Origin: Thermodesulfobacteriota bacterium
GTDB lineage: Bacteria > Desulfobacterota > Desulfobacteria > Desulfobacterales > SURF-7
Length of the DNA: 64,000 nt
Direction of reading: 5' to 3'
NCBI GenBank assembly: GCA_049320885.1
Contig: JBMORA010000009.1
Location: forward strand, 256,001-320,000
Made by a program: the position numbers and the translations under genes. Under the pieces are notes generated by a model, which made no database searches, had not been told where the DNA came from, and worked only from the letters and a program-made list of their open reading frames with translations. Each line of letters begins with the position of its first letter. The stretch's first letter is position 1. This document shows, in pieces, positions 18,705 to 24,380 of this stretch.

Positions 18705-18730
18705 TTGACAATATCCATGCCTGTTGTACA
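18705..18730 (+). promoter_or_regulatory. promoter/operator remnant of the PIN-Phd module
   Basis: TTGACA at 18705-18710 and TGTACA palindrome at 18725-18730 (core known from YefM/Phd-type operators). Confidence 0.5.
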
Positions 18731-18965
18731 TAGGCTGACACTTGAGGAAGCCCGGAAAGGTTTAATCATTTTTAACAGCATCCCGTTACGGTATGTCGAA
18801 GTGGATTTCGCTAATGCATTACAATTATCTAAAGCGATCAATATGTATGCCTATGACGCCTATGTCTTAGATTGCGCAATTAGATATAACGCATCTTTGC
18901 TGACTTTAGACCGCAAATTAGTTGCGGCGGCCCAAAGCATAAATATTCAAATACTGGAGGTTTAG
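18731..18965 (+). pseudogene. vapC: PIN-domain (VapC-like) toxin, 5'-truncated
   Basis: C-terminal PIN motifs YAYDAYVLDCA and LLTLDRKL present; N-terminal DTN-type and E motifs missing. Confidence 0.78.
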
Positions 18966-18966
18966 G

Positions 18967-19185
18967 ATGCAAATCTATACATATTCGGAGGCAAGACAAA
19001 AACTTGCATATGTATTGGAGCAAGCAGAAAACACAGGTAAGGTGTTAATTCGAAGAAAAGACGGTAGAACATTCGCACTGGTACCAGAAAAAACAGCTTC
19101 ATCCCCTCTCGATGTTCCTTCGGTTAAAGCAAAGATTACTACTCAAACGATTGTGGATATAATTCGAGAAGGAAGAGAAAGGTAG
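18967..19185 (+). CDS. Phd/YefM family antitoxin
   Basis: YTYSEARQKLAYVLEQA...VLIRRKDGRTF; GGAGG RBS. Confidence 0.9.
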   Translation: MQIYTYSEARQKLAYVLEQAENTGKVLIRRKDGRTFALVPEKTASSPLDVPSVKAKITTQTIVDIIREGRER

Positions 19186-19243
19186 AACGTTGCCTGCTGG
19201 GCTTGTTTTGTCAGCGGGATTCCGGCGACACAGCCATATGAAT

Positions 19244-19312
19244 AATCTGTGTAAATCGGTGTAATCTGAGGATAGAAAAAATCGGTGGATAAAAACGGAC
19301 TATCCGCAGATT
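19244..19312. repeat. short-period AATC(T/G)GTG repeat with inverted copy
   Basis: aatctgtgta aatcggtgt aatctgaggata ... aatcggtggata; tatccgcagatt (19301-19312) is an 11/12 inverted copy of 19263-19274. Confidence 0.65.
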
Positions 19313-19739
19313 GTCGTTGGCGTAGAAGAACCGTCCAGAATCGTCGGTGTTGATGAAGAGCGTCTCAAGAGGATCTTTGAGATAGCGATTCAGCGGCTCA
19401 CGCCGCGGATACGGGCAACCCTTTCGTTTCAAGAGATCGAGGGCAAGAGAGTAGCCATTTTTGGTGTACCACGCTCAGCCTCTGTCGTTCTGGCTGATGG
19501 CAGTGCCTTTGTCCGCAGCGGTACCTTACCCAGCCAATGGCTTTAAGCTACCGGAGAAACCAGATACAAAGACTATAGAAGCGCTTGCTAATTCAATCGA
19601 GAAGCAGACGACGCTCATCGAAGAGCTGAGAGAAGAAATACGGGTCAGCAATAGCTGGAAGAGCAAATGGAAGGATTACTTGATTTTTGGGTTTGTGGGT
19701 GCAATCCTCGGTGCAATCGCGACTATCTTGATCGGTTGA
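19310..19739 (+). pseudogene. AlbA_2/Schlafen-like domain protein with C-terminal TM helix, 5'-truncated and frameshifted
   Basis: Frame 19310-19546 reads IVVGVEEPSRIVGVDE...EIEGKRVAIFGVPRS...GSAFVRSGT; continues in another frame to a coiled coil and YLIFGFVGAILGAIATILIG. Confidence 0.6.
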
Positions 19740-19742
19740 TGT

Positions 19743-19799
19743 GCCCCACCCGGCCTGCTGCGGATTCTGTTCCCTCGCTGCAGAGGTTGGGTATTATAG
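19743..19799 (+). mobile_element. degenerate attC-like site
   Basis: GCCCCAC just after a stop, imperfect hairpin (ctgctgcg/cgctgcag; cccacc/ggttggg), ends ATTATAG in place of GTTRRRY. Confidence 0.4.
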
Positions 19800-19834
19800 A
19801 TCAAAAAAGCCATATAAAAAGCCATATTTTTATA

Positions 19835-19863
19835 TTGACATACTTTCTTTTCCAACCTACTAT
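19835..19863 (+). promoter_or_regulatory. sigma70 promoter of brnT-brnA
   Basis: TTGACA-N17-TACTAT; preceded by tandem AAAAAGCCATAT x2 (19804-19827). Confidence 0.7.
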
Positions 19864-19869
19864 AAAATA

Positions 19870-20163
19870 ATAAAAAAACAATCTGATTTTGATTGGGATG
19901 CCGACAAAGACAATCTCAATCAGGAAAAGCATGGCGTTTCGTTTGCTCTGGCACAACTTGCGTTTCTGGACCCTGACCGTGTTATCCTTGAAGATTTTGA
20001 GCACGGGGATGATGAGAAACGGTACTATTGCCTTGGCAGAGTCTCTGCCGGAATAATGACCGTTCGATTTACGTACAGAAAAAACAAAATCAGAATTTTT
20101 GGCGCCGGATATTGGCGGAAAGGAAAGAAAATATATGAAAGGGAAAATCAAATACACGGATGA
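19870..20163 (+). CDS. brnT: BrnT family toxin (start codon reads ATA; possibly inactivated)
   Basis: FDWDADKDNLNQEKHGVSFALAQLAFLD, EKRYYCLG, TVRFTYR..IRIFGAGYWRKG. Confidence 0.82.
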   Translation: MKKQSDFDWDADKDNLNQEKHGVSFALAQLAFLDPDRVILEDFEHGDDEKRYYCLGRVSAGIMTVRFTYRKNKIRIFGAGYWRKGKKIYERENQIHG

Positions 20164-20362
20164 GCCCATTGGGAAGGTCAAGGTTATTCCTGATTTTCTC
20201 CCATCCCCAGAAGAACTCGCTCTGAAAGACGAGACCGTGAAGGTTACAATTGTGTTAAGCAAAGCAAGTGTCGATTTTTTTAAAAAAGAGGCCAAAAAAT
20301 ATAACACTCAATATCAGAAAATGATCCGCAGACTTTTGGATGAATATACCGTTCATCAGTAA
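20135..20362 (+). CDS. brnA: BrnA/CopG-like ribbon-helix-helix antitoxin
   Basis: DFLPSPEEL..ETVKVTIVLSKASVDFFK..YQKMIRRLLDEY; overlaps brnT. Confidence 0.85.
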   Translation: MKGKIKYTDEPIGKVKVIPDFLPSPEELALKDETVKVTIVLSKASVDFFKKEAKKYNTQYQKMIRRLLDEYTVHQ

Positions 20363-20390
20363 ACGCGGATCCATAAAAGGAAGCATACGC

Positions 20391-20690
20391 ATGGACATGT
20401 GGAAGTTCTTTAACATCACGCATCGGGAGCACACTCTCTGCAATCCGATGAGTCTTGAGAAACTTGAACAGCTTATCACACTTCTGCCGTTGAAACCCGG
20501 GGCGCGCGTGCTTGATATCGCCACTGGCAAGGGCGAGTTTCTCATCAAGCTTGCAGAGCGGTACCGGCAAATGACAGGGACAGGCGTTGATTTCTCTCCC
20601 CACTGCATTGCCGATGTCCGCAAGAAACATCAAGAACGTGTTCCCGATGCCCAGCTCCATTTCTTGGAGATGGACGGGGCCAAGTATGTC
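20391..20690 (+). pseudogene. SAM-dependent methyltransferase, 3'-truncated
   Basis: HTLCNPMSLEK..VLDIATGKGE..GVDFSP; ORF ends shortly after MDGAKY. Confidence 0.75.
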
Positions 20691-20691
20691 C

Positions 20692-21216
20692 GGATGCGGC
20701 TATGGACGCACATGTTCTGAATTGATAGAGGCCGGTTATCACAATGTAGTCGGGATTGACATCTCTGAGGAAATGATAAGACGCGGTAGGTGGCTGAATG
20801 GCGATCTGAACCTTCATATTTTTGACGGCAGGTCAGTTGATTTCGAAGATAGCTCCTTTGACGCCTGTATTTTGTTGGCGGTACTCACCTGCATACCATA
20901 TGATGGAGGGCAAAACCGTACCATAGATGAAGTACACAGGTTGCTTCGACCCGGTGGCATGGTATTTATCAGTGATTATCCCCTGCGGAAGGACGAGAGG
21001 AACCAAAAACGATACCGTGAGTTCGAAAAACAATTTGGGACTTTTGGCATTTTTAGGACTGAGAATGCTATCCTTCGCCATTTCGATATGAGTCGGATAT
21101 ACCAACTCCTATCGAGATTTGAAATCCTTTGGGAAGAGGTCATCAGAGTTTGCACAATGAATGGCAACGAATCAGATGTTTTCCAAATTGGGGCACGGAA
21201 GAAAAATATCGGCTGA
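20692..21216 (+). pseudogene. second SAM-dependent methyltransferase, 5'-truncated
   Basis: Starts mid motif I (GCGYGRT), GIDISEEMI, FDACILLAVLTC, LLRPGG. Confidence 0.75.
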
Positions 21217-21298
21217 CCCAGCATGAACTCGGACTGGGAATCAGCTGCTACGCTTCGCGTTGCAGCTATTTTCCAACCGGTTATACTGAACATTCGCT
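21211..21298 (+). mobile_element. attC-like integron cassette recombination site (degenerate core)
   Basis: GGCTGAC overlapping a stop codon, cagcatgaactcgg pairing with ccggttatactg with bulged bases, inner stem agctgc-t-acgc/gcgt-t-gcagct, ends ATTCGCT. Confidence 0.65.
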
Positions 21299-21447
21299 TT
21301 CATAAAATCAGCTGAAGGGGCTGAAGGGGATAGTATATGGTCGGACCACGATAAGTAGTTAAACGTAAAATAAATAAGTAGTAAAAACGTTGTTCAAATT
21401 AGCCCATAACCGATTTTTTGAGGGCAAAAAAGAGTTTAGGAAAAGGC

Positions 21448-21789
21448 ATGTCGATAAAACACTTAATTCCAGATGACCCCCAACAATTTATCCAACGCAA
21501 TGTAATCCAAAGGAAAATATTTTGGACATACCATGTGAATATGCGTTTGAAAGGCCGTTCCATTTCCCGAGATGCAATTATCAATTCTCACGATAGTTAT
21601 GAAATATTGTAACAATATCAGAATGATAAATATTTTCCAAGCTATCTTGTTCGTTCTGAATACCATAATGATATAGTACATATTCTGTTTGCAGCTGATG
21701 TGAAAGATGATAATATTCGTATTATTACCGCCTATCGCCCGACTTTGGGAGAATGGGAAGAGGGCTTTAGAATAAGGAGGCAATCTTGA
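21448..21789 (+). pseudogene. DUF4258 family putative toxin with internal TAA at 21610-21612
   Basis: IFWTYHVNMRLKGRSI..EIL*QYQNDKYFPSYLV..HILFAAD..IRIITAYRP..EW continues in the same frame; TGATG overlap with next gene. Confidence 0.82.
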
Positions 21790-22010
21790 TGAAATGCCAT
21801 TTGTGTGGATCAAAATTGGAGTCTTTGATCACCGACCTACCTTTCAAAATCAGCGATACGACCATTGCCATTTTGAAAGGTATGCCGATTTTGCAATGTG
21901 AAAATTGTGGTGAGTATCTGATTGATGATTCGGTGATGAAACATGTTGAAAAAATCCTGGAACGGGTAAGCGCAGATGCTGAGCTAGAAATTATTCGTTA
22001 TGCCGCTTGA
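21789..22010 (+). CDS. YgiT/MqsA-type zinc-finger protein (putative antitoxin)
   Basis: MKCHLCG...PILQCENCGEY...EIIRYAA. Confidence 0.9.
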   Translation: MKCHLCGSKLESLITDLPFKISDTTIAILKGMPILQCENCGEYLIDDSVMKHVEKILERVSADAELEIIRYAA

Positions 22011-22085
22011 AGATTTGTTTGACCGCTATGAATGCCCAACCATTCACATAAAACCTCTATGCACCGCTGATATGGAAAAAAAGTG

Positions 22086-22559
22086 ATGTCCGATAGAGCC
22101 GCCATGGCAACGGAAAAATTCCTGAGTGGATACAACTGAGCCCAGGCCGTCCTTTACGCTTTCCGGGACGAAAGCGAATTGCCGGGGGAAACAGCCTTGA
22201 AGATCGCGTGTGGCCTGGGTGCGGGCATGGGGCGAAAAGAGGAGGTCTGCGGCGCCGTGACCGGCGGGATTCTTGTCCTGGGATTGCGGCATGGCCGGGG
22301 CGGCCAAGATGATCGCTCGGCCATGGAATCAACATACCGGAAAACCCGGGAGCTTATGGACCGGTTTGCCGCGAAGCATGGCACGTTCATTTGCCGCAAG
22401 CTGCTGAATGGCTGCGAGTTGACGACGGACGAAGGGCAGAAGTACTTTAAGGAAAACGACCTGTTGAACAAGACCTGTGTCCCGTGTGTTCAGACTGTTG
22501 TTGGGATCCTTTTGGATCAGGAGGAAAGCAATGCCACAATTACTGGGCATCCGCATTAA
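22086..22559 (+). CDS. C-GCAxxG-C-C family redox protein with in-frame TGA (candidate selenocysteine at codon 18)
   Basis: MSDRAAMATEKFLSGYN(TGA)AQAVL...GLGAGMGR..EVCGAVTGG...GTFICRKLL...TCVPCV; hairpin after TGA. Confidence 0.8.
22140..22187 (+). promoter_or_regulatory. candidate bacterial SECIS element
   Basis: Perfect stem CGCTTTC (22157-63)/GAAAGCG (22170-76), loop CGGGAC, lower stem CCCAGGC/GCCGGGG. Confidence 0.55.
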
Positions 22560-23754
22560 AAATTATAAATCACTAAAGTCTGTCACACTGGGGCAGATCG
22601 GATATGGGCAAGGAGATGCCCTGCCGCCGCTCAGTTGCTTTATCGGTCCGAATGGAAGCGGCAAATCGAGTCTGCTGGATTCATTTGGATTTCTTTCTGA
22701 TTGCCTGCGAGAAGGGGTGGAGGCTGCCTGCGACAAGCCGCAACGCGGAGGTTTCGGGCGATTACGAACCCAAGGGTGTGATGAATCGATACAGTTTGAC
22801 ATTTATTACCGGGAGAATTTGACCGCCAGGCCAATAACGTACAATTTTGAAATTACCGAGGACAAAGGAGTCCCCATCGTTCTTCGCGAACATCTCCGCC
22901 AGCGTAGAAAAGGCCAAAAACATGGACAACCATTTACATTCCTTCGACTTGAAAGAGGGAAGGGAGTTGTATGGGCTGGAGAAAAAACCGAAGACGAGGA
23001 AGGCGCAACCCAACAGGATATCAAACTGGAAGATAATGACCGGCTCGGGATTACAACGCTTGGTCAATTATCCGAACATCCGCGCATCGTAGGATTGCGT
23101 GCCTATATCGAGAATTGGTACCTTTCTTATTTTATCCCGGATGCGGCCAGGCGGTTACCGCCGGCAGGGGCGCAAAAGCATCTTGATCGAACCGGTGAAA
23201 ATCTCGGGAACGTGGTCCAGTTTCTTGAGAGGAATCATAAGACTCGTTTTGATAGCATTTTGGAACGAATACGGCAACGAATTCCTGGAATCGAAAAAAT
23301 CGAAACAGAAAAAAGTCAAGATGGCCGGCTGTTATTGAAGTTCAATGAAGCAGGCTATCAGGATCCGTTTTTTCAACAGAACATGTCCGATGGAACATTA
23401 AAGATGTTTGCTTATCTGCTGCTTCTTGAAGATCCGGAACCGCCTTCGTTTGTTGGAATAGAGGAACCTGAAAACGGACTCTATCATAGATTGGTGGAAC
23501 AACTCGCCAGCGAATTTCGCCGGTATTCTGAAAAATCGAAAGGCAAACTTCAGGTATTGATAACAACCCATTCTCCACAGTTTGTTGATGCATTGAGCCC
23601 CGAACAAGTTTGGCTGATGGAAAAGGATGAAAACGGATTCACTCAAGTCAAGCGCACAGCCGATATGCCCATCATAAAAACCCTTGACGAAGAAGGAATA
23701 CCGCTTGGCAGCCTATGGTACAGCAATCACCTTGAGGAAAGATTCGCGGGATGA
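22531..23754 (+). CDS. ABC-type (AAA_21/AAA_15-like) ATPase
   Basis: IKNYKSL, Walker A GPNGSGKS, signature MSDGT, Walker B IEEPENGL, TTHSP; AGGAGG RBS. Confidence 0.92.
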   Translation: MPQLLGIRIKNYKSLKSVTLGQIGYGQGDALPPLSCFIGPNGSGKSSLLDSFGFLSDCLREGVEAACDKPQRGGFGRLRTQGCDESIQFDIYYRENLTARPITYNFEITEDKGVPIVLREHLRQRRKGQKHGQPFTFLRLERGKGVVWAGEKTEDEEGATQQDIKLEDNDRLGITTLGQLSEHPRIVGLRAYIENWYLSYFIPDAARRLPPAGAQKHLDRTGENLGNVVQFLERNHKTRFDSILERIRQRIPGIEKIETEKSQDGRLLLKFNEAGYQDPFFQQNMSDGTLKMFAYLLLLEDPEPPSFVGIEEPENGLYHRLVEQLASEFRRYSEKSKGKLQVLITTHSPQFVDALSPEQVWLMEKDENGFTQVKRTADMPIIKTLDEEGIPLGSLWYSNHLEERFAG

Positions 23755-24380
23755 GGATTCATTTTTTTGTTGAAGGTCTATCGGAAAAGACTTTTCTGCA
23801 AGTATGGTTGCCTAGATTTCTGCCTGCGAGCCACTCTTTCAAGATCATTCCTCACAGGGGTAAAGGCAAAATTCCCGGCGATCCGGGTAAGAAGCCGGAT
23901 CCAAGACGGCAAGGACTTTTGGATCAATTACCGGCAAAACTCAGGGCCTATGGAAAGGAATTGCATCGCGATACGGATAGAATTATTGTACTTGTTGATT
24001 TGGATCACGATGATTGTCTGATCCTTAAGAAAAAGATGGTTGATTTGCTTGATTACTGCGATACCCCGCCGGTCGCTCTTTTCCGGATTGCTATCGAAGA
24101 AACCGAGGCTTTTTATCTCGGTGATCGATCAGCTATCCGGGCCGCTTTTCCAAAGGCGAGAATATCGCTTCTGGACACATATATTCAGGATAGCATTTGC
24201 GGCACTTGGGAATTGTTCATGGAAGCAATAAGAGAGACTTCGGATGACAAGGTGCGCTGGGCCGGAATAATGGGCAGGCATTTGACAACAAAGTGGAAAG
24301 GCGCGTTTGCAAATAAATCCATATCATTTCAACAATTTTGCAAAGGGATTTTGCAAATGGCCGGTGAGCCGATCGATTGA
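23751..24380 (+). CDS. DUF4276-like TOPRIM-fold protein
   Basis: FFVEGLSE, VLVDLDHDDC, IAIEETEAFYLGD, NKSISFQQF; ATGA overlap with the ATPase. Confidence 0.78.
   Translation: MRIHFFVEGLSEKTFLQVWLPRFLPASHSFKIIPHRGKGKIPGDPGKKPDPRRQGLLDQLPAKLRAYGKELHRDTDRIIVLVDLDHDDCLILKKKMVDLLDYCDTPPVALFRIAIEETEAFYLGDRSAIRAAFPKARISLLDTYIQDSICGTWELFMEAIRETSDDKVRWAGIMGRHLTTKWKGAFANKSISFQQFCKGILQMAGEPID

Follow-up and report, generated by a model that had tools for sequence, protein, structure and literature searches.

A C-GCAxxG-C-C family gene with a predicted selenocysteine codon and in-frame SECIS hairpin in a Thermodesulfobacteriota genome

The gene at positions 22086-22559 of the 64,000-nt stretch of Thermodesulfobacteriota DNA analyzed here (the window) very probably encodes a selenoprotein: a predicted small, helical metal or Fe-S redox protein, with selenocysteine (Sec) in place of the first of four invariant cysteines. 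“Redox” is the family label as applied to this predicted protein. A first-pass annotation had proposed that a UGA is read as Sec here to give a 157-aa product; this prediction is supported by conservation of the codon together with a downstream hairpin, by selection on the reading frame, and by the presence of Sec machinery in the genome.

Reading frame and protein family

The frame runs from ATG 22086 to TAA 22557-22559, with one internal TGA at 22137-22139 (codon 18; Table 1). The table-11 ORF list begins the gene at TTG 22179 (126 aa), and it is called as 120 aa in the public protein collection; the start codon of the orthologs is the same codon as ATG 22086. Among the 120 best protein matches, 42 are fragments of at most 130 aa starting 3′ of the TGA, and three translate the TGA as Trp. 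Gene callers truncate genes of this clade, and the annotation needs correcting. On re-reading, the coordinates first assigned to the ATG, TGA, 17-nt spacer, stem, loop, and lower stem were all borne out. Contigs from two other studies (X3 and X4) span codon 18 with one and zero differences, respectively, none at the TGA, which is thus not a sequencing error; contig X1 was left out of the count of independent samples because it may be the source itself. The assembly carrying the window (G000) is 98% complete, in 68 contigs.

Table 1. Features of the gene, with positions in the window.
Feature	Positions	Strand	Basis
Full CDS, C-GCAxxG-C-C family, 157 aa read through one TGA	22086..22559	+	Profile scores
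17 codons 5′ of the TGA, missed in standard gene calling	22086..22136	+	pN/pS 0.25 vs. 25 TGA orthologs
In-frame TGA, codon 18, predicted selenocysteine at first invariant Cys	22137..22139	+	Conservation
Lower stem proposed at first pass, 22141-22147 with 22181-22187	22141..22187	+	Can form in this copy
Predicted SECIS hairpin, codons 24-30, loop from 24 nt after the TGA	22157..22176	+	-8.9 kcal/mol, conservation
Cys55, second invariant Cys (CGAVTG motif)	22248..22250	+	113/114 representatives
Cys103, third invariant Cys	22392..22394	+	113/114 representatives
Cys131, fourth invariant Cys	22476..22478	+	114/114 representatives
Foreign C-terminal tail, codons 143-157	22512..22559	+	Ortholog lengths, junction

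Read through, the protein scores 82.5 bits against TIGR01909 (cut-off 47.4), labeled “C-GCAxxG-C-C family (seleno)protein,” and 107.9 bits against PF09719 (cut-off 27). Across 114 representatives (32-61% identity), Cys is found at positions 18, 55, and 103 in 113 each and at position 131 in all 114; the three remaining Cys of this protein vary. The TGA of GYN-TGA-AQAV does therefore fall at the first Cys of the family, as originally read. Two more family members are found in G000 (C17:97841-98221 and C43:49052-49792), one a tandem two-domain form, with no internal stops.

The predicted model is all-helical (mean pLDDT 90.4), with the first helix, encoded by the 17 codons 5′ of the TGA, at pLDDT above 90 and residues 18, 55, and 103 at helix starts. 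When the model was compared with 48,161 chains, split-Soret cytochrome c ranked first (1h21; Z 12.4, rmsd 4.0, 139 residues aligned), with the second-best row at Z 5.5. Foldseek also gives 1h21 as its first match (probability 0.84, but E 0.69, which is not significant); identity is 12%, close to what helical proteins may show by chance. Solved structures were also searched by sequence, with no match to 1h21 and none to any entry below E 0.1. The PDB entry is for the Desulfovibrio desulfuricans protein and is titled “A novel iron centre...”. From this fold match to an iron-centre protein, Sec18, Cys55, Cys103, and Cys131 could form a single Fe-S or metal site, for cytoplasmic electron transfer or thiol redox chemistry, a model to which we give about an even chance. 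We take the iron centre of 1h21 to be a Cys-bound [2Fe-2S]-like cluster.

The TGA codon and its hairpin among homologs

Sixty-one related genomes (including G000) were searched, with a family match in 35. Outside G000, the four best matches (73-79% identity; three genomes, two families) have one TGA each, and the next-best (65% identity) has none. The possibility considered at first pass, that close orthologs would all have TGC or TGT with the same hairpin, is contradicted by these four. The tblastn rows, at least 190 among the matches listed, comprise 48 with TGA, 137 with TGC or TGT, and five that fall short of codon 18. The 164 rows with at least 50% identity that span codon 18 were kept and identical 72-nt contexts collapsed, giving 133 distinct contexts among the matches listed: 29 with TGA, 104 with TGC or TGT, and no other codon at position 18. 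The TGA contexts span several families and orders, and the genes of those listed have no further internal stop. In this comparison, which the first-pass annotation had suggested, the closest orthologs have the TGA plus the same hairpin, and Cys homologs are without the hairpin. Since relatives keep codon and hairpin together, read-through as Sec is very likely.

The hairpin begins after a 17-nt spacer and has a 7-bp stem (CGCTTTC, 22157-22163, with GAAAGCG, 22170-22176) and a 6-nt loop (CGGGAC, 22164-22169). As a chance level, 133 of 18,854 TGA triplets sampled from G000 (0.7%) are followed by a hairpin with seven Watson-Crick pairs and a loop G at +21 to +29; widening the search to +15 to +38 raises this to 355 (1.9%). 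Among the matches listed, 28 of the 29 TGA contexts have the complete 7-bp stem, which all 104 Cys contexts lack. The best Cys contexts have six of seven pairs (five cases, L044 among them), and mean hairpin energy is -8.7 kcal/mol in TGA contexts vs. -1.7 kcal/mol in Cys contexts. The TGA rows form one clade, so these counts describe one lineage rather than independent trials. The perfect stem is thus tied to TGA, but the covariation anticipated for it was not seen: the stem is nearly invariant among TGA contexts, with eight one-sided changes to G-U, one broken pair, and no compensatory two-sided change, and its covariation score is no better than that of shuffles. The G in the second loop position is present as described; it is shared by 101 of 104 Cys contexts, and so is no marker by itself.

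The lower stem (CCCAGGC/GCCGGGG) forms in this copy but is not conserved: 65.5% of cells are paired across orthologs, vs. 99.5% for the upper stem. It is also missing from the consensus fold and is not needed for the explanation, and was rejected. Folding of the whole region was dropped as evidence, being no better than shuffles (z 0.15, -0.05, and 0.78).

Within the hairpin, Ala25 is GCT and Phe26 is TTC in all 29 TGA contexts; elsewhere in these contexts, three or four codons are in use for Ala19, Val22, and Ala37. Over hairpin codons 24-31, the query has a pS of 0.14 and the all-pairs value is 0.22, compared to 0.75 and 0.67 downstream of the hairpin codons, and to 0.84 for codons 24-31 in Cys genes. 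Arg27 is encoded by CGG in 20 of 26 cases and CGT in the remaining six; six other Arg positions also use CGA, CGC, AGA, and AGG. The published bacterial SECIS model has a G within the first two loop positions and a G[G|U] loop pattern (PMC13188914, as given in the Fig. 2A legend), and limitation of Arg27 to CGG and CGT fits this rule. Residue 27 is Arg with the hairpin, and Cys in most Cys-form homologs.

A tree was constructed from the 122 contexts with full-length genes, leaving out codon 18 and codons 24-31 (quick search, no bootstrap). All 26 TGA rows fall in a single clade (SH-aLRT 100) that also includes two Cys rows, L044 and L061, and there are three changes at codon 18, against 24 with shuffled labels. 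If the root is outside the clade, as a distant outgroup suggests, the tree suggests a single gain of TGA and two reversions to Cys. The hairpins are weakened in both reversions, that of L044 having six of seven pairs. Four more distant rows (27-38% identity) likewise have TGA at the first Cys, so the same Cys probably became Sec more than once.

Distant family members with one TGA, some apparently two-domain, include L029, L027, L056, and L171 second matches, and four of these distant TGA rows were confirmed at the first Cys. Further distant rows with one TGA are found in G006, G011, G013, G014, G015, G017, G027, G032, and G056. A different pattern is seen in L126 (and L127), an apparent chimera in which codons 1-55 match TGA-clade genes (92-96% identity) and codons 56-142 match the L151 Cys-clade gene (93-97%). 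Proteins P0005 and P0008 have the same pattern. In L126/L127, recombination may have placed the TGA and hairpin on a Cys gene, or this may be an assembly artefact.

In the mechanism we propose, SelB loaded with Sec-tRNA would bind the hairpin loop 24 nt past the UGA and deliver Sec, giving the 157-aa product. UGA and hairpin would have arisen once, inside a Cys-encoding subfamily and with Arg at residue 27, and then have been kept in Thermodesulfobacteriota and relatives, apart from the two reversions. The copy in the window keeps every conserved residue but no longer has its usual stop, and any intact attC sites would have been lost from it.

Condition and surroundings of the window copy

Compared to 25 TGA orthologs, codons 2-17 have a pN/pS of 0.25, and codons 19-142 one of 0.16. 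On the gene's own branch, dS is 0.56-1.26 and dN 0.04-0.06, with dN/dS 0.04-0.08 in eight of ten triplets (two were not computable). Purifying selection 5′ and 3′ of the TGA, and along the own branch, speaks strongly against an old nonsense mutation. The caveat that neighboring genes are decayed is a real one: the DUF4258 gene at 21448-21789 is interrupted by an in-frame TAA (21610-21612). With the whole-region folding no better than shuffles, these decayed neighbors might suggest that a simple TGY-to-TGA nonsense mutation, or a sequencing error, produced the TGA, and that the hairpin is a coincidence. However, the TGA is common to the 29 distinct contexts listed, across families and orders; it is linked to the hairpin and has selection on either side; and the identical codon appears in independent samples. 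There is only the faintest likelihood that this explanation is right.

The 3′ end of this copy is unusual. Most orthologs stop at 146-148 aa, whereas in this one the sequence is foreign from codon 143 on. It has lost the usual stop, and its frame overlaps the next gene (an AAA ATPase, ATG 22531) by 29 nt. The ribosome-binding site is weak, and a promoter and terminator scan at this gene gave counts at or near shuffle level. The lost stop and the neighboring pseudogene leave room for very recent silencing, with the lineage truly selenoprotein-encoding but this copy a silenced passenger among cassette remnants. The 15 foreign C-terminal residues, the overlap, and the weak ribosome-binding site would be in keeping with this, as would the absence of an intact attC from the window, the DUF4258 nonsense codon, and a broken methyltransferase nearby. 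Against it, own-branch dS is high with dN low; all conserved residues, including the four catalytic positions, and the perfect stem are retained; gene GC is 56%, the same as that of the genome, with adjoining bins at 37-46%; and the sequence and its 3′ junction recur in samples of other studies, the junction being bridged by a contig of one of them (X2 record 7). On balance, silencing seems improbable, and a functional selenoprotein gene remains the preferred reading.

The surrounding region (18705-24380) is an AT-rich patchwork of toxin-antitoxin modules and fragments (partial PIN with Phd; BrnT/BrnA), DUF4258 with a YgiT-type zinc finger, and an AAA_21 ATPase with DUF4276, with a methyltransferase in pieces at 20340-21216. 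A stretch of ~40-80 bp at 19233-19311 is repeated at six places on five other G000 contigs (82-92% identity).

An integron gene cassette is a single promoterless gene bordered by attC sites. The core GTTRRRY is found just 5′ of the start in 7 of 26 TGA loci and 15 of 99 Cys loci (background 3.7%), and RYYYAAC just 3′ of the stop in 8 of 26 and 17 of 99 (background 3.0%). By a covariance model built from only nine attC sites, and with E-values that are therefore rough, attC-like sites adjoin 7 of 29 TGA contexts (E <= 0.1; five outside the training set, three on both sides); three adjacent TGA matches are weak (0.04-0.095), and 22 contexts are without an adjacent match. The palindromes lie either 5′ of the gene, ending 13-21 nt short of the start, or at its 3′ end, where they begin between -14 and +11 nt relative to the stop. 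In a search of 100 loci, such sites were also found beside 10 Cys genes of the collapsed set, five of which belong to the training set. Neighbors vary by locus, and include acetyltransferase, cupins, glyoxalase, YefM/YoeB, DUF4145, and DUF6429. From the attC-like borders and changing neighbors, it appears that the subfamily, Sec and Cys forms alike, moves partly as cassettes; that relatives of the window copy travel in this way is, we think, probable. Such attC-bordered copies point to integrons as a spreading route for selenoprotein genes. In the passages retrieved from full-text literature on integrons with selenoproteins or selenocysteine, which concern selenocysteine lyase, there is no report of cassette-borne spread.

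The window copy itself would be at most a former cassette. No attC was found under E 1 in the 64-kb window (heuristic and covariance model, filters on and off). Two integron integrases over cut-off are present in G000 (C8:468-1409 and C56:52009-52959), both near contig ends and with no attC beside them by this covariance model; across the genome there was one attC match under E 0.01 and three under 0.1, among the 150 of 1099 candidates scored. Three of five relatives searched have an integron integrase, on other contigs. There is a lone GCCCAAC core at 22034-22040, but such cores occur in ~3% of random 55-nt windows; that this core and position 22512 mark a cassette remnant and its start is suggestive only.

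Two arrangements at other loci may be mentioned. At L202:3424-4428 (G021), three attC-like sites in a row flank a methyltransferase, a cupin, and the TGA gene, in a stretch without an integrase; the genes around this array are presumably a chromate transporter and hcp. Adjoining an ortholog at L047:2705-3004, L139:about 430-729, and downstream in L121 is another small gene that has its own in-frame TGA (GFS-U-R) and hairpin and that weakly matches the NCBIfam “DF family (seleno)protein” (43.6 bits, below the cut-off of 70).

Decoding machinery and comparison with known systems

The search for Sec genes suggested at first pass found selA, selB, selD, and a canonical tRNA-Sec (75 bits) in G000, each over cut-off, so this is not a genome without Sec machinery. 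Its selD has one TGA of its own (GAG-U-ASK) with a short hairpin, as does an fdhA gene; in a motif-plus-hairpin scan of G000 for other selenoproteins, chance matches dominate, and only the selD and fdhA rows are usable. In nine other TGA-bearing genomes, selA was found in eight, selB in eight, and canonical tRNA-Sec in seven; each has at least selA or tRNA-Sec, the one without selA having tRNA-Sec. Among 12 genomes with Cys forms outside the clade, selA was over cut-off in two, but these were hand-picked drafts, mostly from other phyla, and not a random sample.

G000 also has a second UCA tRNA of the selC* type (A1:U72, U73; 52 bits) at C1:315730-315821, followed directly by a second SelB over the TIGR00475 cut-off (C1:315730-317772; L003, L007). 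Some Cys insertion at UGA is therefore possible, and it is conceivable that codon 18 is read mainly as Cys here, through this tRNA and its own SelB copy; according to excerpts of PMC5389517, a selD opal codon can be decoded as Cys by such a tRNA in E. coli. On the other hand, the canonical Sec system of G000 is complete, and no dedicated CysRS* without an anticodon-binding domain was found in this assembly, the second CysRS match being a 759-aa CysK-CysRS fusion (L208:592-2871, on C1) whose CysRS-like domain has altered motifs. A single SelB and a canonical tRNA-Sec, truncated in one case at a contig end, were seen in six of the nine other TGA-bearing genomes. Inspection of their matches (in drafts, with at most 114 tRNA candidates scored each) turned up no selC*-type tRNA in these six, which argues that the TGA allele is independent of selC*. 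A mainly Cys reading is accordingly given a low probability, only marginally above that of recent silencing. Sec would be the default at codon 18, and Cys may be inserted in a small share of the product or when selenium is low; the selenoprotein explanation would also accommodate Cys insertion that is partial or depends on selenium. Near-identical selC*-type tRNAs occur in G001 and, in two copies, in G002; G032 has a similar tRNA. The ordinary CysRS of G000 is on C29. ARAGORN also calls an unusually long (87 nt) tRNA-Gln(CTG) at C48:44011-44097.

These elements could be combined further: a cassette-borne selenoprotein whose coding-sequence SECIS is usable by any Sec-competent anaerobe, with a 5′ end that recombines onto Cys genes and a UGA whose reading, Sec or Cys, would follow selenium availability (selC*/SelB*). 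We consider this fuller scheme rather unlikely. The clade is in any case a natural experiment in Cys-to-Sec codon change, with a putative single gain, a hairpin within the coding sequence, and two reversions, and the Cys homologs at 55-70% identity suit side-by-side assays. As a short protein with one early UGA, it would also be a handy reporter of selC* tRNA action in a native host.

Several known systems can be compared. The selC*/SelB*/CysRS* system (PMC5389517, excerpts) is matched by the G000 tRNA with its A1:U72, U73, and UCA and by the selB that directly follows it, but the gene after this second selB is not cysS*, nor was cysS* found elsewhere in the assembly. With integron cassettes, relatives share attC-like borders and neighbors typical of cassette cargo, and G000 has integrases; the window copy differs in having no intact attC or nearby integrase. 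Split-Soret cytochrome c (1h21), the best structural match over 139 residues, is a longer protein (240 vs. 157 residues), and its two c-type haem motifs (CxxCH) are absent from the translation, which also has no visible signal peptide. In the text available from PMC8105010, PMC8840924, PMC11492766, and PMC5701242, split-Soret cytochrome is only mentioned.

The bacterial SECIS model as described in excerpts of PMC13188914 calls for a loop of 3-9 nt, a stem of 4-16 bp, a spacing of 16-37 nt, and an energy of -7.5 kcal/mol or below. The hairpin here lies within all four ranges, with a 6-nt loop, 7-bp stem, 24-nt spacing, and -8.9 kcal/mol, and has G-G after the first loop base; it differs in that there is no conserved lower stem, and the first and last loop bases (N1, N2) do not form a standard pair.

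Finally, the novelty implied for this selenoprotein at first pass does not stand. Sec forms of the C-GCAxxG-C-C family are catalogued in PMC9312934 and PMC13188914 and go back to PMC1976440, as the sections available of these papers indicate; because of this earlier cataloguing, the present finding is mostly an annotation fix. The family is not named in excerpts of PMC2398784. Reference accessions for published Sec forms 1 and 2 are MGD8741185.1 and WP_012158890.1. At the family level, the likeness includes passing both profile cut-offs, the four invariant Cys positions, the same kind of anaerobic host, and a Sec/Cys pair with a downstream stem-loop. In the available descriptions of the published forms there is no mention of attC-bordered copies. 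The genes described here differ from those forms in making up a distinct clade, with its own hairpin, that lies inside a group of Cys-encoding homologs at 55-70% identity.
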